From a virus (Duplodnaviria > Heunggongvirae > Uroviricota > Caudoviricetes), in IMG/VR virus record IMGVR_UViG_2563366934_000005: a stretch of DNA of 35,675 nt, one strand, 5' to 3'. The position numbers and the translations under genes are program-made. The notes beneath the pieces were generated by a model, which saw only the letters and a program-made list of their open reading frames with translations, ran no database searches and was not told where the DNA came from. The first letter of the stretch is position 1; each line of letters opens with the position of its first letter. Shown one piece after another: positions 1,441 through 35,357 of this stretch.

Positions 1441-1446
1441 CGTTTC

Positions 1447-1533
1447 GCTGAAAAACATAACCCATAAAATGCTAGCTGTACCAGGAACCACCTCCTTAGC
1501 CTGTGTAATCTCCCTTACACGGGCTTATTTTTT
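1447..1533 (+). ncRNA. cyaR: CyaR (RyeE) Hfq-dependent small RNA
   Basis: 87-nt stretch GCTGAAAAACATAACCCATAAAATGCTAGCTGTACCAGGAACCACCTCCTTAGCC... ending in a stem-loop plus U-run. It matches my recollection of E. coli CyaR in sequence and length, directly downstream of yegQ. Confidence 0.85.
1499..1533 (+). terminator. intrinsic terminator of cyaR (3' part supplied by the att core)
   Basis: 10-bp stem GCCTGTGTAA / TTACACGGGC (one G-U pair) with loop TCTCCC, followed by TTATTTTTT. Confidence 0.7.
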
Positions 1534-1534
1534 A
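1507..1534. repeat. prophage attR core (28-bp direct repeat, identical to 35173-35200)
   Basis: AATCTCCCTTACACGGGCTTATTTTTTA occurs exactly twice in the window, flanking the phage gene block. It is the reverse complement of what I recall as the P2 att core (AAAAAATAAGCCCGTGTAAGGGAGATT). Confidence 0.85.
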
Positions 1535-1600
1535 CGCGTAATTCAATGAAATAAAAGGATTTATTTCTGGTCACGTCCACACATTGACCACATCGACAAA

Positions 1601-1624
1601 AAAGCCCCTCGACTGAGGGGCTTT
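1601..1624 (-). terminator. intrinsic terminator downstream of ogr (bidirectional hairpin)
   Basis: AAAGCCCCTC-GACT-GAGGGGCTTT hairpin. On the minus strand it is followed by TTTTTTGTCG, 10 nt after the ogr stop. Confidence 0.6.
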
Positions 1625-1934: not shown

Positions 1935-3098
1935 TCACTCATCATCTTCTGTTTCGTACTCCACATCAGAAAGCCTGACCTCAAGCTCCAGGGACGTCGT
2001 GAAGCCGCTATTATTCAGAAAATGTGTCACCTTAGTGATTGTCCAGTCCTGCTCGTCTATGACGCGCTTAAAACCTGACACTTTGACCGGCGTTTCCGTG
2101 TAAATATCTGCCCGACCAGTAGCCAGACTGATGGAGAACTCCGCTACACCCCGTTGCAGTTTATCCCACTTCGCCTGAGCGGCGCGCATGGCCTGTGCTT
2201 TCGTGGCATATACCGTGGTCAGTGCAAAAACGTTGTCAGCCTCACCGGCCATGTATTCACCTTCGCGCGCTTCCGGTACTTTTGGCGCTTTCTTCTGCGT
2301 GACTGGTTTCGCTTTCGGGTGCTCCAGTGCGCGCAGGTGTTTCTCTTTCTTTTTGCGTTTCAGTTTTACCTTCTGCTTTTGCGGCTTCGGGTCTTTGGTG
2401 TGTAACCACTTTGCCGTTACGCCTGTGTAGGCTCCGCGGTCAGCAATCGCAAAATGATGACGGTCGCCGTCGCTGCGGGTGATGGTAATCTGCGGGATTT
2501 TTTTACCGCTGGCCGTCACCCCCTGCCCCGCTTTGAGAAACAACAATTTTCCCATTTTTACCGACACCTCACCGCCGTTGCGTTCAGCAAGGCGGGTCAG
2601 GAATTTTGCATCAGACTCCTGCGACTGGTCGATGTGCGGGATTTTAATTCCGGCCAGTGACGGCGCGACACTGGCTTCCAGCCTGTTACGGGAGGCTATT
2701 GCCTCAACAATCGCACCGAGCGTGGTGTCATGCCAGGAGCCTTCACGGCGGGAATTGAGCGTCCCGCGAAAATCTGCACTCCGGGCGCGGATGGTGACCA
2801 CATCCGGCGCGCCCCGGTGTTCAACCTCATCAACGGTAAATTTCCCTTTGCATACCAGGGCAAAACCTTTCCAGCCGATATACACCGTCAGGACAGCGCC
2901 ACGAATCGGCAGCCCGACCTGCCCGTCGGCATCGTTCAGTTCAATATCAAGCTGGTCAGCCTCAAAGCCCCGGTTATCCGTCAGAGTCATGCTCATTAGA
3001 CGGTCGCTGATATTGCCGGTAATATCCCTGCTGTCGAGCATCAGCATGTAATCCGGCGTCAGCGTACTGCCTGCATCAAATGTCAGTGCATCCAGCAT
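1935..3098 (-). CDS. D: tail protein D
   Basis: 387 aa, the P2 gpD length, sitting between ogr and U as in P2. Start ATG overlaps the U stop. Confidence 0.8.
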   Translation of the reverse strand: MLDALTFDAGSTLTPDYMLMLDSRDITGNISDRLMSMTLTDNRGFEADQLDIELNDADGQVGLPIRGAVLTVYIGWKGFALVCKGKFTVDEVEHRGAPDVVTIRARSADFRGTLNSRREGSWHDTTLGAIVEAIASRNRLEASVAPSLAGIKIPHIDQSQESDAKFLTRLAERNGGEVSVKMGKLLFLKAGQGVTASGKKIPQITITRSDGDRHHFAIADRGAYTGVTAKWLHTKDPKPQKQKVKLKRKKKEKHLRALEHPKAKPVTQKKAPKVPEAREGEYMAGEADNVFALTTVYATKAQAMRAAQAKWDKLQRGVAEFSISLATGRADIYTETPVKVSGFKRVIDEQDWTITKVTHFLNNSGFTTSLELEVRLSDVEYETEDDE

Positions 3099-3577
3099 TA
3101 TCCCGCCCCCGTCATACCTGTGAATTTAGTCGCCATACTGCCAGCCTTACCGATGAGCGATTCCGCCTGTTTACCGATATCGCCATAAAGCGCGGCCAGT
3201 GATTCATCAACGCGGGTGAGCGACAGCGTAAAATCAATTTTCCGGGGTGTGCCGTCTGCAAAGAAAATACTCCCTGTTTCACTCACCTTGCTGATGACAT
3301 ACATGCCGTAAATCATGCCAGTGCCATCCAGCAACGGCCACGCCCGGCCTTCCTCTGCCATCAGCCTGAGCGTGGTCATCGTCAGCTTTCCGCCGGTCAG
3401 TTCGGGATAAAGCACACCGGCAAGCGTGATGTTTTCCTCGCCAACACCGAGAAACTGAAAGGCATCCCGTTTACCGATACGGGAATTTGACGGCCAGTGA
3501 TAATCTGATTCACGCTGCATGGTCTGGTGTGGCAGCGTCTGGCGCATAAAAACAAACATACCTAACGCGAGCATCAT
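3098..3577 (-). CDS. U: tail protein U
   Basis: 159 aa, the P2 gpU length, between T and D. Confidence 0.8.
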   Translation of the reverse strand: MMLALGMFVFMRQTLPHQTMQRESDYHWPSNSRIGKRDAFQFLGVGEENITLAGVLYPELTGGKLTMTTLRLMAEEGRAWPLLDGTGMIYGMYVISKVSETGSIFFADGTPRKIDFTLSLTRVDESLAALYGDIGKQAESLIGKAGSMATKFTGMTGAG

Positions 3578-3591
3578 TTTTCGTCACCTCC

Positions 3592-6039
3592 TTAACCGTC
3601 ATGCATCATGCTGGCACGGGCGCGCGCACGTTTATCCCGCTCGTATTTTTCGAGCGCATCCTGTAACTGGCGGTCAAGCTGTGTTCCCGGCGCAGAACCA
3701 CCCGTCAGGTTAATGTGATATTCGTTTTTACTCTGGTCTACATAAGAGCGGCCAGCCGGTGCCGTAACCGGCTGATAAGCCTGATAGCCTGCATAAGAGC
3801 TGGTCGCCGGAATATAACCAACGCTGCCATACGTGGCGGCTTGAGTTCTGGCGGCGGTCTGGTCAAGTGTGTCTGACTCTTTGTTGATAACACCGAGTTT
3901 TTCCAGTACCCAGTCAATACCGCTGCGCAGTTTGTTGAACGCATTAAGCGGCAGCATCAGCGCGTCAGCCAGTGCCTGCCCGAACATGACGCCCGTGTCA
4001 CGGCAACGGTTCAGGGTGTCCTGGGTGGCTTTAACCGGGGCAATCAGGTTTTTAAACCACTGCCACGCGGCCTGTAACTTTTCGCCCAGCCAGTCAAACA
4101 CCGGTTTCAGTGGCGTGAACAGCTCCCCCACCGGCGCAAATGCCGCTTTCAGCCCTTCAACCACACCGCCAAAGAATGCGCTGACAGGCTCCCAGTATTT
4201 ACGGATAAGTAACGCTCCGGCGACAATGGCGGCCACCACGGCCACTACCGGCCAGCTAATCGCCCCGATGGCCGTCATAACGGCACTGCCAACCGTCGTG
4301 AAAATTGCCCCCATTGCGCCTGCTGCAGCAATGATGGCATTGATGCCGGTGATAACCGGCCAGGCTACGAGGCCAATGGCACCGATGACACCAGTCAGCG
4401 CCAGTGCACCACCGACAATGATGCCGATGGTTGACGCCAGTGATTTGTTTTTCTGGATCCAGCCGTCGAGTTTTAACACATACTTTGTGGCCGTCTGCGT
4501 GAGATTACGCAGTGCGCCTTCCTGCTGGTCAAACAGGTCAGTCCCCACCGCCTCATAAGCGGACTGAAACTCCTTAAAGTCACCTCCGAGGTTGTCCTGC
4601 ATGATTTTAACCAGCTCTTCCGTTTTATCGTCCGAGGCTTTCAGCATGGCGGTCAGCTTATCCAGTTTTCCGCTTGCTGCCGCTGCCAGTAAAACGTTCG
4701 CTGATTTCAGGGCTTCCTCACCAAAAATGGTTTTAAGGTATTCCCCCTTCTGAGACGTTCCCAGCTTGTTTTTATCAAAGCTGGCCTGAATCTCTTTCAG
4801 AATGGTAAACAACGGACGCATATTTCCCTTTTTGTCCGAGGTTTTAACGCCAAGCTCTTTGAGTGCTTCCCATGCTTTCCCTGTCGGAGCCTGTAATCGG
4901 GTGACAACGGCACTGCTACCCGTACCCGCCATTGACCCCCTGATGTTATTGTCATGCAGCACACCTGTCATGGCTGCTGCCTGCTCAAGACTTACACCTG
5001 CCGTCTTCGCAACTGGGCCGAGGTAAGTCAGTGCATCACTGAGTCCCTGAAAATCAGCCGCCGACTTATTCATCGTTGCCGACAACACATCACCCACATG
5101 GCTGACATCATCATTTGACAGTTGAAAAGATGCTTTAGTCCCCAGCAACAGTTGCGCGTTTTCTTCCATCGACCGCTGATTCGCCAGTGCCATATTCAGC
5201 GTGACCGGCGTTGCCGCCTGAATAGCCGCAGCATCTCCACCCGCTTTCGCAATGATAATCTGCGCACCGGCTGCATCATCCGCCGAGGCGGCGGTGTTGT
5301 CGCCGAGCTGGCGCGCCTGCTTGCGTAGTGCGGTCATTTCGGCGGAGTCTTTTGCCACTCCGAGCACGGCCTGCAATTCTGAGTTTTTCTGCGCAAACTC
5401 ATAACCGGGCATCAGCAGCTTAACTCCGGCCATCGTTCCCGCCGCCGCAATCCCCACACCGGCAGCGCCCACTGAGGCCATATTTCCGGCCAGTTCCTTT
5501 CCGGCCTGATAACGCTGTTTTACTGCGTTAAGTTTTGCCTGTTGCGCACTGACACGCGCCAGCGCGTCACGCTGACGGTTAAGTTGTGCGGTGGTTTCAC
5601 TGATACGGTTTTTCAGTCCCTGCTCATCATGTGCAAGATTGCGGGTATTAATTCCCACAGCGGCCAGTTCCCGCTGCTGGCGTTTAACGGAATCCGTCAG
5701 GCGGTTATATTTCGCCTGTAAGTCCTCCGCCGCACGCTTTGCGGATTCCAGCACTTTCGCCTGAGCACGGGTCGGACGTTCGGTGTTTTTAAACTGTGTG
5801 GCAAGGGCTTCGGCTTCCTGCCGTGCCTTTTCAAGTGCATGACCAGTCACGGCAAGCTGTGCACTGGTCTTGCGGAATCCCTCAATACGGGATGCGTGAC
5901 CGTTCAGCTCGCGCAGTGATTTTTGTGTTTCCCGGATATCCCCCGACAGCGACTTACTCGCTGTACGGATGGATTTAAACGGGCGGGATGCCTGGTCAAC
6001 AGCCCTGAGCAATACCTGTAATTTTACATTGTTACTCAT
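3592..6039 (-). CDS. T: tail tape measure protein T
   Basis: 815 aa, the P2 gpT length. Coiled-coil-rich N-terminus and Gly/Ala-rich hydrophobic middle segment typical of tape measure proteins. Confidence 0.85.
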   Translation of the reverse strand: MSNNVKLQVLLRAVDQASRPFKSIRTASKSLSGDIRETQKSLRELNGHASRIEGFRKTSAQLAVTGHALEKARQEAEALATQFKNTERPTRAQAKVLESAKRAAEDLQAKYNRLTDSVKRQQRELAAVGINTRNLAHDEQGLKNRISETTAQLNRQRDALARVSAQQAKLNAVKQRYQAGKELAGNMASVGAAGVGIAAAGTMAGVKLLMPGYEFAQKNSELQAVLGVAKDSAEMTALRKQARQLGDNTAASADDAAGAQIIIAKAGGDAAAIQAATPVTLNMALANQRSMEENAQLLLGTKASFQLSNDDVSHVGDVLSATMNKSAADFQGLSDALTYLGPVAKTAGVSLEQAAAMTGVLHDNNIRGSMAGTGSSAVVTRLQAPTGKAWEALKELGVKTSDKKGNMRPLFTILKEIQASFDKNKLGTSQKGEYLKTIFGEEALKSANVLLAAAASGKLDKLTAMLKASDDKTEELVKIMQDNLGGDFKEFQSAYEAVGTDLFDQQEGALRNLTQTATKYVLKLDGWIQKNKSLASTIGIIVGGALALTGVIGAIGLVAWPVITGINAIIAAAGAMGAIFTTVGSAVMTAIGAISWPVVAVVAAIVAGALLIRKYWEPVSAFFGGVVEGLKAAFAPVGELFTPLKPVFDWLGEKLQAAWQWFKNLIAPVKATQDTLNRCRDTGVMFGQALADALMLPLNAFNKLRSGIDWVLEKLGVINKESDTLDQTAARTQAATYGSVGYIPATSSYAGYQAYQPVTAPAGRSYVDQSKNEYHINLTGGSAPGTQLDRQLQDALEKYERDKRARARASMMHDG

Positions 6040-7046: not shown

Positions 7047-8237
7047 TTAATTGCTGTTAACCGAAGTGACCAGATTTGCCAGGTATTTATCGGTAATACG
7101 CTGGCGCAGGGTCAGGTTTTCAAGAGGAGGCACCGGTGTATAGTCGTAGTCGATATACAGTTTTCCGGCCTTGAGGGTTTCCGCATCGTTGGATTCTTCG
7201 CTGAACCAGCAGGTCGCATCCACGATATAGCCGTTTGTTTTCAGCTCACGGAATTTGGCATTGATGCCGTCAACGATGTCGCGAATCAGCGTTGCGGTGA
7301 TGGGCTTGTCCACCGCCCACATGTGCGCCTCAGCCATCGTGTCGGCCAGCACCTGCGCGGTGCGGGTGTAGTTTTCAAAGAGGAACAGCGGGTCATCAGA
7401 GCAGGTACGGTTACCCCAGAAGCGGAAACCGTCACGGCGAATCAGCGTTGTGACGCCTGACTCGTTAAGCAGGTCAGCATCGGTGCCGGACTCCTGCAAA
7501 TCCCAGAATACGGACGCGCTGATGCCGGTAACACCGTTCACCCCGACGTTGGACAGCGTTTTATGCCAGCCCTGCTCCTGGTCGATTTTAGCGCGCAGAC
7601 CCAGCGCACGGGCAGTGGCATACGCGGTGGCGGTGGTACTGGCGACCGTATCCCATGCGAGGAAATCCGGCCAGATGACCATCAGCTCACGCTGGCTGAA
7701 ATTCTGGCGGTAGGCTTTCACCTCGGAAATGGTTTTACAGCCCCATGCGCTGATATACCCGAAAGCGCGCAGCTTCTGACAGACTGATGCCAGTGCAACA
7801 GCCACCTCTTTGGTGTCCAGTCCCGGCACACCGAGAATACGCGGTTTAACGCCGGTTACCGACTCTGCCGCCAGCAGGGCTTTCAGTCCGGTGTACTGAC
7901 CATTTTCGTCGGTGGTGCCGATGATATTGGAAACGGTCTGCGCGAGTTTCGTTTCCTCGTCGTCGCCGGTGCCGTCTTCCACACGCACGACAACGGTGAC
8001 CGGTTTTGACTGGTCAGCGATGGCCTGCAACGACGCCGCCAGCGTGCCTTTTTTACCGGCCTTTGCAATTGCGCTCTGCACGTTGGTAATCAGCACCGGT
8101 TTATTGAGGGGGAAGGTTTCCGCATCCGCATCGCTGGCCGTGCAGACCATGCCGACAATGGCCGTGGATACGGTGGAAATGACGCGGGTGCCGTCGTTAA
8201 TCTCCAGCACCTGCACGCCGTGATGATAGTCACTCAT
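7047..8237 (-). CDS. FI: contractile tail sheath protein FI
   Basis: 396 aa, the P2 gpFI length. GGAG ribosome-binding site upstream of the ATG. Confidence 0.85.
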   Translation of the reverse strand: MSDYHHGVQVLEINDGTRVISTVSTAIVGMVCTASDADAETFPLNKPVLITNVQSAIAKAGKKGTLAASLQAIADQSKPVTVVVRVEDGTGDDEETKLAQTVSNIIGTTDENGQYTGLKALLAAESVTGVKPRILGVPGLDTKEVAVALASVCQKLRAFGYISAWGCKTISEVKAYRQNFSQRELMVIWPDFLAWDTVASTTATAYATARALGLRAKIDQEQGWHKTLSNVGVNGVTGISASVFWDLQESGTDADLLNESGVTTLIRRDGFRFWGNRTCSDDPLFLFENYTRTAQVLADTMAEAHMWAVDKPITATLIRDIVDGINAKFRELKTNGYIVDATCWFSEESNDAETLKAGKLYIDYDYTPVPPLENLTLRQRITDKYLANLVTSVNSN

Positions 8238-8330
8238 CCGTTTAACTCCGTGGTTAATGGGTGCAACTATTTTCTGTTGTGCAGAGCATGAGACGCTATA
8301 TGACCTGGCTGGTCAGTGGATGAAACAACA
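8238..8330 (-). promoter_or_regulatory. candidate late promoter region for the FI-FII-E-T-U-D operon
   Basis: About 90 bp between the upstream terminator hairpin and the FI start, where P2 places its Ogr-dependent late promoter. I could not identify a convincing TGT-N12-ACA element by eye. Confidence 0.3.
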
Positions 8331-8340
8331 GATAAAGAAA

Positions 8341-8361
8341 AGGCGGGCAATTCGCCCGCCT
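8341..8361 (-). terminator. intrinsic terminator closing the Z/fun cargo transcript
   Basis: GC-rich hairpin AGGCGGGC-AATTC-GCCCGCCT followed on the minus strand by TTTCTTTATCTGTTGTTT. Confidence 0.45.
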
Positions 8362-8600
8362 GTCCTGATTTGTACTCACTCATTTTCCGACTGACAATTT
8401 ACATAGCCCAAACGCTATCAATTCTGACAGTCTGCTTTGAGCGAGGAGCAGACCTTCACGCTTTTCGCTGTTGAGTGACATGAATTATTAAAGAGCATTA
8501 TAAAACTTCACTTTTTCTAATTTCAATGCTTTATTAAAGTCAGCGACATTCAGGCTTATCAATTCAATATTAATATACCATCAGCATTATATAAGAGGTA

Positions 8601-9605
8601 TTATGCTAACCATTTTGGATGCTCTTTATAAACATTATTAAACCACTCGGTCATTTCAGGTGAGTTCGTATCCTTTATCCAAGTTAACTCAAAGTCATCT
8701 CCCATAGATGCAAATATTGATTTCAATTGAGTTATGATTAAACCATAGTAAAATCCAAAAGTTTTTTCTTCATCCTCATTGACTAATGATTCAATATGAC
8801 AACTGAGAATAAATCGAACTCGTGCCGCCGTTGAGGGATGTGTCGATTGAAAATGTTCATGGGGTGATAAGCCATCAGAAAGTTTGAAGTAGCACAGTAT
8901 TAATAGCAATGAAAATGCAATTCCGCCTTCCTTGCTGCTATAAAAATCAAGCAAGTTATTAAGATAAGATACCTTCTGATCAAATGCAGACTGTACATGT
9001 TTTTTTACAATATTAAGAGCAAAACCATCTGCAACTAATTCTCTTGCGTGGCTTGATATTAGTTCTGCGCTATTGATTTTTTTATGTCCTAAAACATCAT
9101 CAAAGATAGTGTCAATAGATTGCTTTTTTGCTCGGTCGCCATGTTTATTAATGAAATGGCCTACTTCGTGACTAACTATAAACAGCATTAGACAATCAAG
9201 AATAAACATAAATAAGTGTGATTCGGACTCACTTTCCTCTCTTGTCTCATTGTTAAACCCAACAAATGGATTAGTAACGAGATGCAAGTCATAAAAGTTT
9301 AAATTAGTACTTTTCCCTGTTATCATCCCTGACCGAAAAATCAAGTCAGATAACTTACATAGTCTATCAAATGTACCATAAGACATAAATATTAATTTTT
9401 CATCATAAATAATGCCGCATTGAAAATGTGAGTTGGTTGTAATGCAAAAATCCAGATCTAATTTTCGAACAGAGTCCATGTATTTACTAAAAAACGGCAG
9501 TACGAGACCATTATCTCTATCATTTATAAAATCATAGATAAGCCCCAATTGATTCTTTGAAAGAATTTCATTGATTTCATTAAGTTTTATTTCAAATCTA
9601 TCCAT
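8601..9605 (-). CDS. cargo protein with ImmA/IrrE-like (M78-type) HExxH zinc-metallopeptidase core; function unknown
   Basis: 334-aa ORF with AAGAGG ribosome-binding site 8 nt upstream. HEVGH at residues 146-150 (nt about 9156-9170) and ELVADGFAL at 189-197, fitting the HExxH ... ExxA(N/D)xFA pattern of COG2856 peptidases. Very AT-rich relative to the phage backbone. Confidence 0.55.
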   Translation of the reverse strand: MDRFEIKLNEINEILSKNQLGLIYDFINDRDNGLVLPFFSKYMDSVRKLDLDFCITTNSHFQCGIIYDEKLIFMSYGTFDRLCKLSDLIFRSGMITGKSTNLNFYDLHLVTNPFVGFNNETREESESESHLFMFILDCLMLFIVSHEVGHFINKHGDRAKKQSIDTIFDDVLGHKKINSAELISSHARELVADGFALNIVKKHVQSAFDQKVSYLNNLLDFYSSKEGGIAFSLLLILCYFKLSDGLSPHEHFQSTHPSTAARVRFILSCHIESLVNEDEEKTFGFYYGLIITQLKSIFASMGDDFELTWIKDTNSPEMTEWFNNVYKEHPKWLA

Positions 9606-9921
9606 AATTAGAACCTCTTAATTAAAATTTTAAATAATCCGCTTAAGTAGCTATGGAGATGTAATTCTAATACTCAATCCACTCATTCAATGGAAAGATT
9701 AGCATTACTTTAACCGCACTTTTGGACTTGACTTACTTCCCTTAAAGCTTCTGGGCACTATGTTAGTAATGTCCGCTCTTCGCACGCAGCGGACATTGCT
9801 AATAGCGGTCTATGTGAAACACGGGGAGTAGGTTAGTTTTAGCGTTAAACACAATAAGAGCACGATGAAGTATCAAAAAGGAAGCATTGCATAGATAATT
9901 TAGGCAAAAACAGAGCTTAAA

Positions 9922-10773
9922 TTACATATCATTCGCTATCAATTCGGTTGAGAGAACCCTTGGAATCAAGCTACTTTTTGAACCATACTTTATATACAGA
10001 AAGTCCATCATCTTTTCAACATCACTTTCATGCTCTACAATGACATATTTAATATCCTTATGTGAAAAGGGTAACCTGTCATCATCATAATATTCGTTAT
10101 ATTTTCTCTTGCCATCTTGAGTTGATATATTTTTCGAAGCAGCGATCACTGGTTTTCCAATTGATTTTTCTATATCTGGAACAAATCGCCACTCCCTCTC
10201 ATCTGCAAAAATATAGTTAGGTTTCTCCTGACCATTGCGTCGTTTCAAAGTTGCCTGGTAATTTTTCATATATCGCAAAGGATCTACAATTTTCTTGTAA
10301 CTAAGAATCGCCGAGTCATATTTCCGCTTTGCATTAGTTAATTGAGATGTTGTTCCTGAAGATTTTATTTCGTCCAAATGCTTTAATAACTTATTAACTT
10401 CTGCTTTTAAACGCCTAATCTCTAGATTATAATTATCAAAAACAGAAGAGTGCTTGGACATGTAAATTACTGGATTAAGTCCATTTTCGTTTGCCCAATC
10501 TTTTGATAATCCTATGCCATAATGGCCATAACTTTCAGTATGCTGGGTAAGCTGTGTTAGCCTGATATCACAAAATGAAACCATCGGTATACCGAAATTT
10601 CTATTCGTGCTCTGGCCTTGTATAAACTCTCTAGCGAAAGAAATTCGAAAATAACTTGAGTCAAGTATCTCAAATAAGGTATCTAACTTTTCAGTAAAAT
10701 GAAACAAGGTCGTTGGGTATAAGCTACGCGACATAATGATCATCCATAATATGATGTATAAACTAAGTATCAT
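9922..10773 (-). CDS. hypothetical cargo protein (283-aa ORF; start may be an internal Met)
   Basis: Long AT-rich ORF at the Z/fun position. Conspicuous LFHFT...L..IL N-terminal motif and a basic coiled-coil-like middle. No clear ribosome-binding site at the first ATG; alternative starts at Met11 and Met14. Confidence 0.5.
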   Translation of the reverse strand: MILSLYIILWMIIMSRSLYPTTLFHFTEKLDTLFEILDSSYFRISFAREFIQGQSTNRNFGIPMVSFCDIRLTQLTQHTESYGHYGIGLSKDWANENGLNPVIYMSKHSSVFDNYNLEIRRLKAEVNKLLKHLDEIKSSGTTSQLTNAKRKYDSAILSYKKIVDPLRYMKNYQATLKRRNGQEKPNYIFADEREWRFVPDIEKSIGKPVIAASKNISTQDGKRKYNEYYDDDRLPFSHKDIKYVIVEHESDVEKMMDFLYIKYGSKSSLIPRVLSTELIANDM

Positions 10774-10952
10774 AAATCAAGGTTATCAGTACTTACCATA
10801 CATCAGCAAGCGGAATTAGCGATAGCGGCCTGCTCCTCATTAATCAACACTAAGAGCTGTTAGCTACTTCCGCTCCTGGCACAGAGCGGACTGTCAGATT
10901 AGGCTTTACTCTGTGCCATAGATATGTAAGCTCACACCAGAGTTCATATAAC

Positions 10953-34079: not shown

Positions 34080-35093
34080 ATGGCAATCAAAAAACTCGAT
34101 GATGGTCGATATGAAGTGGACATCCGCCCTACTGGACGTAACGGAAAACGCATCCGTAGGAAGTTTGATAAGAAAAGCGAAGCTGTCGCTTTCGAAAAAT
34201 ACACGTTGTACAACCACCACAATAAAGAATGGCTATCAAAACCAACAGACAAACGACGTCTGTCGGAACTGACACAGATCTGGTGGGATTTAAAGGGTAA
34301 ACACGAAGAGCATGGGAAATCTAATCTTGGAAAAATTGAAATCTTCACAAAAATAACGAATGACCCATGCGCATTTCAAATCACGAAATCCCTTATCAGC
34401 CAGTACTGCGCCACCCGAAGAAGTCAGGGTATTAAACCTTCGAGTATCAATCGTGATTTAACATGTATTAGCGGCATGTTTACAGCCCTGATTGAAGCGG
34501 AGTTATTCTTTGGTGAGCACCCTATCAGAGGGACAAAGAGGCTTAAGGAGGAAAAACCAGAAACAGGCTATCTCACACAGGAAGAAATTGCCTTACTGCT
34601 TGCAGCACTTGACGGCGACAACAAAAAGATTGCGATTCTTTGCCTGAGTACAGGAGCACGTTGGGGAGAAGCAGCTCGTTTGAAAGCAGAAAATATCATC
34701 CATAACCGCGTCACGTTTGTTAAAACGAAAACAAACAAACCACGCACCGTCCCGATCTCAGAGGCTGTTGCCAAAATGATCGCGGATAACAAACGAGGTT
34801 TTTTATTCCCTGATGCTGATTACCCTCGCTTCAGAAGAACAATGAAAGCAATAAAACCGGATTTGCCAATGGGGCAAGCCACACATGCACTAAGGCACAG
34901 CTTTGCCACTCATTTCATGATTAATGGAGGAAGTATTATCACGCTACAACGGATACTAGGTCACACGCGGATTGAGCAAACTATGGTTTACGCTCATTTT
35001 GCGCCAGAGTACCTTCAGGACGCCATTTCTCTTAATCCGCTAAGAGGTGGTACTGAGGCCGAGAGTGTCCACACAGTGTCCACAGTAGAGTAA
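34080..35093 (+). CDS. int: tyrosine integrase
   Basis: 337 aa, the P2 Int length. C-terminal catalytic motifs ...HALRHSFATHF...LGHTRIEQTMVYAHF (R, H-x-x-R, Y). Adjacent to attL. Confidence 0.9.
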   Translation: MAIKKLDDGRYEVDIRPTGRNGKRIRRKFDKKSEAVAFEKYTLYNHHNKEWLSKPTDKRRLSELTQIWWDLKGKHEEHGKSNLGKIEIFTKITNDPCAFQITKSLISQYCATRRSQGIKPSSINRDLTCISGMFTALIEAELFFGEHPIRGTKRLKEEKPETGYLTQEEIALLLAALDGDNKKIAILCLSTGARWGEAARLKAENIIHNRVTFVKTKTNKPRTVPISEAVAKMIADNKRGFLFPDADYPRFRRTMKAIKPDLPMGQATHALRHSFATHFMINGGSIITLQRILGHTRIEQTMVYAHFAPEYLQDAISLNPLRGGTEAESVHTVSTVE

Positions 35094-35172
35094 CGTTTAA
35101 GGGCTTTCAGTGGTAATTTATGCCGCTCAAACCCGCATTGTACCGTTGAAAGCCCCTACTGGTGACACCCTA

Positions 35173-35200
35173 AATCTCCCTTACACGGGCTTATTTTTTA
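35173..35200. repeat. prophage attL core (28-bp direct repeat; displaced copy of the cyaR 3' end)
   Basis: Identical to 1507-1534, but it lacks the upstream half of the cyaR terminator stem, so it is a partial cyaR 3' copy. Confidence 0.85.
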
Positions 35201-35357
35201 TGCATAAGCCCTATCCCTGGTCACCGTCTTCCATTGACCACATCGATAGAATCTCCCTTCATAGCACGATGCCTTTCACGTAACGGCATCGTGCTCGCAC
35301 AGGTTCCGGCTAAGCACAACCAGAACGCGCATGTTTGACGCTTACCAAAAAATATTC

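Follow-up and report, generated by a model that had tools for sequence, protein, structure and literature searches.

The locus analysed here raised the question of what lies on the bacterial side of a prophage attachment site. A P2-like prophage of 33.6 kb, with ogr at its left end and int at its right end (34080-35093), was found inserted at the small RNA gene cyaR, and the 157 bp following its int-side junction could represent either original host DNA or the remainder of an older element. The window, as it is called below, is the complete analysed stretch of 35,675 bp. Its left end and the two junctions of the prophage displayed the following features:

1-1362: yegQ/trhP, at the left end of the window
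1445-1530, plus strand: cyaR small RNA gene (Rfam RF00112, 100.7 bits, E 3e-19)
1507-1534, plus strand: first att core copy, ogr-side junction (attR in P2 convention), AATCTCCCTTACACGGGCTTATTTTTTA
1535-1566, plus strand: core-proximal part of the ogr-side arm, at the position equivalent to NC_001895 24324-24357, the P2 IHF site
1569-1596, plus strand: Int arm-type site, identical to NC_001895 24293-24320, which the P2 record annotates as protein_bind Int, 'P arm'
1601-1624, minus strand: terminator of the prophage ogr / F operon, identical to the one annotated in P2
35059-35156, plus strand: int-side arm of the prophage, in which the P2 features 'Int P' arm' and 'Cox' recur exactly
35059-35085, plus strand: Int arm repeats of the int-side arm (P2 'Int P' arm')
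35083-35156, plus strand: Cox binding region of the int-side arm (P2 'Cox')
35173-35200, plus strand: second att core copy, int-side junction (attL)

The att core was formed by the terminator and U-tail of cyaR. AATCTCCCTTACACGGGCTTATTTTTTA was present as an exact direct repeat of 28 bp, at 1507-1534 and 35173-35200, which flanked the prophage. The 27-nt core AATCTCCCTTACACGGGCTTATTTTTT of the first copy was the attP annotated in P2 (NC_001895), and the annotated P2 core also displayed an exact copy at 35172-35199. The Int arm-type site at 1569-1596 consisted of the direct repeats CGTCCACA (1574-1581) and TGACCACA (1585-1592), 11 nt apart, the P2 Int arm consensus being tgTGGaCa (PMC3448106). 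Sequence 1535-1566 was slightly unlike P2 at the IHF position. As judged from these matches, the att region of the window is essentially that of phage P2.

In the cyaR terminator stem, the 3' half (1519-1525) read ACACGGG in E. coli, as in the P2 core, and ACGCAGG in both E. albertii and Escherichia sp. E1V33 (about 7519-7525 in loci L131 and L132) and in most other genera. The E. coli allele of the terminator might have been donated by an integrating element.

The host side of the int-side junction and its right neighbour, yegR, displayed the following features:

35201-35357, unstranded: flank of 157 bp from the core to the yegR stop codon, left end of an E. coli-specific islet
35201-35216, plus strand: putative relic spacer between core and Int site (17 nt including the C at 35217, versus 33 nt in the phage)
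35217-35246, plus strand: putative relic of a P2-type Int arm site, 24/30 identical without gaps to 1567-1596
35250-35259, plus strand: 10-nt core word AATCTCCCTT, identical to the left end of the core
35263-35295, unstranded: perfect palindrome with an 11-bp stem and an 11-nt loop
35358-35675, minus strand: yegR, encoding a predicted lipoprotein of 105 aa (PF27694), inside the islet

The original prediction had drawn attention to two motifs shared by flank and phage arm, to a third core word and to a palindrome with an 11-bp stem; all four were confirmed where it had placed them. CTGGTCAC was found at 1567-1574 and 35217-35224, and CATTGACCACATCGA at 1582-1596 and 35232-35246, the latter with no further copy in the window. 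Their spacing had been claimed to differ, which was not the case: the distance from start to start was 15 nt in phage arm and flank alike, and only the distance from core to block differed (33 nt in the phage arm versus 17 nt in the flank). Both motifs belonged to one colinear block of 30 nt (1567-1596 and 35217-35246) that was 24/30 identical without gaps; its orientation and its side relative to the att core were the same in both places. The flank as such began at the first base past the 28-bp core and was colinear with the ogr-side arm. In the comparison with known P2 sites that had been proposed, the shared block proved to contain the annotated Int P-arm site. The six differences were confined to the central 7 nt (GTCCACA versus CGTCTTC); the distal repeat TGACCACA (35235-35242) was intact and identical to that of P2, and the proximal repeat was destroyed, reading CGTCTTCC.

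A set of 5000 first-order Markov random flanks served as null model, the best ungapped match to the 30-mer being scored in each. None of them reached 24/30 and their best match was 21/30; likewise, exact words in common with the 100-nt phage arm reached 15 nt in the flank, versus at most 13 nt in the 5000 random flanks. Since no random flank reached the observed match, the resemblance of the two blocks is best qualified as homology, chance being excluded. A coincidence, or a functional host motif that has nothing to do with phages, deserves hardly any credence and is refuted statistically. Such a motif would agree with the presence of the flank in prophage-free strains and with the block being near-invariant, unlike its neighbours, in 21 flank haplotypes of E. 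coli, but the match coincided with an annotated Int site at the homologous position and the length of the invariant run was, by estimate, not unusual for the polymorphism density of the flank. The flank displayed neither an Rfam family nor a terminator, and its sole promoter-like match, at the yegR stop, was no better than shuffles.

The 157-bp flank was single-copy in 5372 of the 5426 complete E. coli genomes. A synthetic empty-site query, in which cyaR was joined to the flank and a hit was counted when at least 80 % of it was covered in one place, indicated that the flank directly adjoined the cyaR core in 4566 of these 5426 genomes; the site was occupied in ~16 % of them. No islet-free cyaR-yegS junction was encountered among complete E. 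coli genomes. A single one, FDAARGOS_1077 (H190), had cyaR and the yegS upstream region at most ~700 bp apart, and its islet appears to be shortened by ~300 bp. The scar is not strain-specific, being fixed across E. coli. It had been proposed that the same 157 bp in strains that never carried a P2-like element at cyaR would speak against an older prophage. The prophage-free site of strain 55989 indeed carried them, with one mismatch in 647 nt relative to the joined flanks of the window, yet the idea is not refuted thereby, because such strains descend from a lysogenised ancestor; the finding merely dates the scar to before the diversification of the species.

Outgroups were scanned with one genome per species carrying YegQ, which gave 80 non-coli loci among the matches listed, non-coli Escherichia being represented among these matches by only two lineages. 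In 46 of the 80 Enterobacteriaceae species among the matches listed, including Escherichia sp. E1V33, yegS started ~100 nt past cyaR. A YegR homologue near cyaR and the 157-bp flank were both absent from all 80 outgroup loci among the matches listed. Because yegS directly follows cyaR in outgroups, with no yegR between them, the ancestral order is taken to be yegQ-cyaR-yegS.

One outgroup locus was of mixed appearance. In 'Enterobacter hormaechei' B17-3 (L130, 6001-8200), YegQ was 100 % identical to that of the window and cyaR had an E. coli-type core, followed downstream by an Enterobacter-type insert of ~630 bp. Either recombination of the segment or an assembly that is chimeric or mislabelled could account for this.

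The DNA by which E. coli differed from the ancestral order was an islet of ~803 bp (3001-3803 in the 55989 locus, L002), which comprised, besides yegR, the 157-bp flank and an AT-rich stretch of ~330 bp. Its GC content was 0.40, versus 0.50-0.54 in neighbouring genes. A further feature marked the right end of this islet, which lay ~330 bp outside the window:

55989 locus (L002) 3776-3803: degenerate second core AATCCTCCATACTTGAACTGACTTTTTA, 19/28 identical to the core

Besides the true core, AATCCTCCATACTTGAACTGACTTTTTA was the sole match of at least 17/28 on either strand of the 6.1-kb locus, and 19/28 was reached by three of 200,000 shuffles of the 28-mer. It adjoined the exact point where homology with the yegS upstream sequence of E1V33 and E. 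albertii resumed. The 30 nt preceding it resembled the core-proximal int-side arm, in a local alignment of 58 nt that was of modest significance (shuffle p = 0.014). The islet interior displayed no residual phage genes (int, ogr or structural) and no phage similarity, which is to be expected of so old a relic; the islet may stem from a full phage or from a smaller element using a P2-type Int.

The homology of the block could have arisen in the opposite direction, the ogr-side arm having been picked up from the E. coli flank when an ancestral prophage excised aberrantly. The geometry permits this, as int-side host DNA would land on the correct side of the core in a new attP. However, the arm had an architecture of its own, consisting of an AT-rich IHF stretch, two arm repeats 11 nt apart, a sequence ending in CCACATCGA and a terminator. 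This architecture recurred in Wphi and L-413C, two phages with cores unrelated to cyaR, and in cyaR prophages of Citrobacter, Trabulsiella, Scandinavium and other genera whose chromosomes are devoid of the flank. Moreover, the flank was absent from outgroups and lay inside a low-GC islet bounded by a second core, and the host copy had lost one of the two functional repeats. A transfer from host to phage is thus very improbable and can be considered largely refuted. Because the arm is native to phages with unrelated cores and to the cyaR prophages of other genera, descent proceeded from phage to host.

The 157-bp flank is accordingly interpreted as probably being the left end of a fossil integrated P2-like element rather than original host DNA. 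The original prediction, according to which the attB used by the present prophage was itself the junction of an earlier P2-like prophage, thereby gained support from the homology to the P2 P arm, from the outgroup absence and from the second core at the islet boundary, to which the species-wide distribution is added here. An intact core with an arm relic at one end, and a decayed arm with a decayed core at the other, constitute the signature of an old site-specific integration, and one element presumably left both ends.

The following course of events is proposed. A P2-like element with an attP like that of modern P2 would have integrated via Int into the 3' end of cyaR before the diversification of E. 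coli, when cyaR was directly followed by yegS. The product would have been cyaR-core-(ogr-side arm) ... (int-side arm)-core-yegS, nearly all of which would then have been erased by deletions and substitutions. The left remainder would be a shortened arm with one of the two Int arm-type repeats (35217-35246), and the right remainder, outside the window, ~30 nt of core-proximal int-side arm followed by the decayed core. Between these remnants would lie the palindrome, AT-rich DNA and yegR, either as retained cargo or as a later arrival. The left core would have survived intact because it is the cyaR terminator, and for that reason would have stayed a working attB, into which the present 33.6-kb prophage integrated.

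A variant with two nested events was also considered. An older element bearing yegR would have extended from the cyaR core to the degenerate core. Later, another P2-like phage would have inserted into the cyaR core and then been deleted from its ogr-side arm to its int-side core, leaving the arm relic and AATCTCCCTT as a core stump. This core-identical word of 10 nt, present as a third copy in the window (35250-35259, besides the cores at 1507 and 35173), lies 3 nt past the arm relic, and such a word was found in 15 of 5000 random flanks (p ~0.003). The K-12 remnant described below results from a deletion that likewise ends inside a core, and the left relic of the islet in places looks better kept than the right one. 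On the other hand, core similarity at 35250-35259 did not extend past the 10 nt, and the word was polymorphic in E. coli (AATCCTCCTT in K-12, AATCCCCCTT elsewhere), a polymorphism that cannot be polarised without an outgroup. The difference in identity between the left arm (46/64) and the right end (39/58) was not significant. Two nested events are therefore regarded as conceivable but doubtful, and AATCTCCCTT may be the trace of a nested junction or a product of chance.

The palindrome sits where P2-type arms have a terminator hairpin, with a folding energy of -21 to -25 kcal/mol (z ~ -5). It was rejected as an intrinsic terminator, displaying a T-run on neither strand and giving no call in the terminator scan, and also as a structured RNA, since stem substitutions in other haplotypes were uncompensated. 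Core word and palindrome lend little support to an older prophage. Further right in the flank, a weak match of 35305-35353 to phage 186 (E = 0.5) involved a non-coding stretch near cos and was taken as chance.

The spacer between core and Int site was variable. Some E. coli had a version 12 nt longer, owing to an indel at 35210-35216 (L127, L009, L109, L096, L058, L062) for which versions with ctgtaaatacggattgatcc and ccatagagacggattgatcc were observed; the insertion puts the putative relic Int site 29 nt from the core. An equivalence with the phage IHF region, suggested by GGATTnAT before CTGGTCAC in the longer haplotypes, was not retained, as it was not better than shuffles (p ~0.3-0.5). Similarity of the spacer alone to that region was not significant.

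Two further peculiarities were noticed at the right core edge. In some E. coli, the phage-type ACGCGTAA replaced ATGCATAA at 35200-35208, both at int-side junctions and at prophage-free sites (L093, L015, L033, L086; empty sites of strains M217, AR435 and Sanji), two linked changes turning one 6-nt palindrome into the other. This variant looks like the footprint of an earlier integration and excision, or of gene conversion. An inverted repeat at 35187-35211 (GGGCTTAT ... ATAAGCCC, with a spacer of 9 nt), which straddles the core edge and the first flank bases, was present in the E. coli attB and absent from attP; its fold was marginally better than shuffles.

The decay of the Int arm block was uneven, with 23 perfect positions and changes at six of the seven central ones. 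Uniform neutral decay does not predict such a pattern, and one has to assume either that the donor arm was a variant one or that a small event changed several bases; no donor arm clearly nearer to the relic than P2 itself was found among the modern arms compared.

Retention of the block as a working site would be another way to account for its preservation. It seems rather improbable that the relic still binds the N-terminal arm-binding domain of P2-type integrases, and there is similarly little reason to expect that the cyaR attB has become a favoured, self-reinforcing target, with attL acting as a weak attP and excision being altered. In favour of such a function, an intact repeat TGACCACA is present at a distance of 35 nt from the core, E. 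coli genomes hardly vary over the 27 nt surrounding it, and the site is occupied in ~16 % of complete genomes. Selection nevertheless found no statistical support, as the polymorphism density of the flank makes a near-invariant run of 27 nt (21 haplotypes) unremarkable, and E. albertii and other genera were lysogenised at cyaR without any relic. The features of a functional attP-type arm needed for an intasome were also incomplete: one of the two repeats was lost, the spacer measured 17 instead of 33 nt, and the IHF site was gone, no significant similarity to it being left. Each lysogen at this locus thus has an int-side junction composed of int-side arm, core and partial ogr-side arm, that is, a crippled attP-like structure. 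Given the loss of the IHF site and of one repeat, and the altered spacing, this junction is expected to be inert, and the relic Int site with it.

YegR was encountered at the cyaR locus in E. coli and Shigella only. Its distant homologues (47-82 % identity) were located in unrelated chromosomal contexts, one of them flanked by IS, and had nothing but the coding sequence in common. Divergent YegR matches (75-87 % identity) were discarded; those looked up (P0018, P0044) were error-ridden E. coli assemblies of the same locus. A phage origin of YegR was suggested by its strong match to a PHROG family (phrog_21109) and had to be rejected as an artefact of prophage records that include host flank. 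No YegR homologue was found in genuine phage genomes, and the 'phage' records with yegR were limited to a prophage record that also contained yegS and gatR and to a K-12-like fragment. It is because of such over-run records that YegR matches phrog_21109. A deposited partial phage genome, ON470606 ('Escherichia phage vB_EcoM-720R8', L218, 2910-5814), ran 2.8 kb past attL and took in yegR, yegS and gatR. On the comparisons made here, yegR is considered foreign to the locus, and it was probably cargo of the ancient element.

The cryptic P2 remnant located at cyaR in K-12 was reportedly described by Barreiro and Haggard-Ljungquist in 1992. It displayed the order cyaR-core-arm-ogrK-D'-half core-flank, with ACACGGGCTTATTTTTTT as half core, and its ogrK-yegZ segment was annotated as 'cryptic prophage PR-X'. 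The site itself, predicted to be a reused integration hotspot, was already known as such: insertion of P2 at cyaR has been recognised in E. coli W, K-12 and B, and the K-12 remnant has been named ogr-D' (PMC3032704). Like the scar, this remnant involves the same attachment site and the same kind of element, decayed to an att junction and a few hundred bp; its right end keeps the half core, which is followed by the 157-bp flank. It differs in being young, with near-identical ogr and D', in being limited to K-12-type genomes and in sitting atop the older scar. The scar, by contrast, is carried by essentially all E. coli and has no recognisable phage gene; none of the records examined annotated it as phage-derived.

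Further deletion remnants were observed at the locus in E. coli E308 (L129, 2470-3052), where the deletion ran from tail gene J into the flank, and in strain SF10 (H185). In these remnants, the distal flank beside yegR was fused directly to what was left of the baseplate gene J, or to tail gene I.

A parallel outside E. coli was provided by E. albertii NBRC 107761 (L132), which displayed the following feature:

7530-10905 of the E. albertii locus: islet with cdtABC between cyaR and yegS

From left to right, this islet consisted of cyaR with its core, a truncated ogr-side arm, IS fragments and cdtA, cdtB and cdtC (identified with Pfam), followed by 70 nt near-identical to the P2 int-side arm, a second core (23/26) and the ancestral yegS upstream sequence. 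CDT-V and cdt operons are known as morons of P2-like prophages (PMC6823313). The E. albertii islet is comparable to the scar as an arms-only P2-like remnant at the same site, with cargo kept, that adjoins the ancestral yegS upstream region. It is an independent insertion with a known toxin as cargo and much younger, as its int-side arm is near-identical to that of P2 and its second core matches at 23/26. In the E. coli islet decay has gone much further (19/28), and the presumed cargo is the uncharacterised gene yegR.

Five other species, from Pseudescherichia, Enterobacter and other genera, displayed islets of 0.5-2.7 kb between cyaR and yegS (L157, L186, L191, L197, L202). These ended in a second core (18-22/26) located 72-86 nt before the yegS alignment, and two of the five started with a P2-type arm (L191, L202). 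More generally, degraded or 'grounded' prophages have been described at integration hotspots (PMC6379469). Relics at tRNA, tmRNA and sRNA hotspots share with the scar the reuse of one attB, which selection on the RNA gene protects, and decayed elements with degenerate repeats downstream. Unlike them, the scar keeps an identifiable Int arm-type site right beside an active core. The E. coli scar represents the oldest stage of a decay process that is seen elsewhere at every stage.

Globally, no new mechanism emerges from this locus, which is a further example of the well-known prophage relics at RNA-gene hotspots. It bears on the calling of prophage boundaries, since some 'phage' records, and a PHROG family, wrongly take in the flank and yegR. 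If the relic Int site were a working one after all, site preference, excision efficiency or secondary recombination could be influenced, and a past infection would have re-tuned the attB for every later one. Together with the scar, the remnants in K-12, in E308, in E. albertii (cdtABC) and in several genera compose a series in which prophage decay at a single RNA-gene hotspot can be followed step by step, from intact phage through arms plus cargo to a barely recognisable relic. The orphan gene yegR, present species-wide, probably came by, or lies in, an ancient site-specific insertion, and the textbook 'bacterial' attachment site of P2 at cyaR would in E. coli already be a phage scar.
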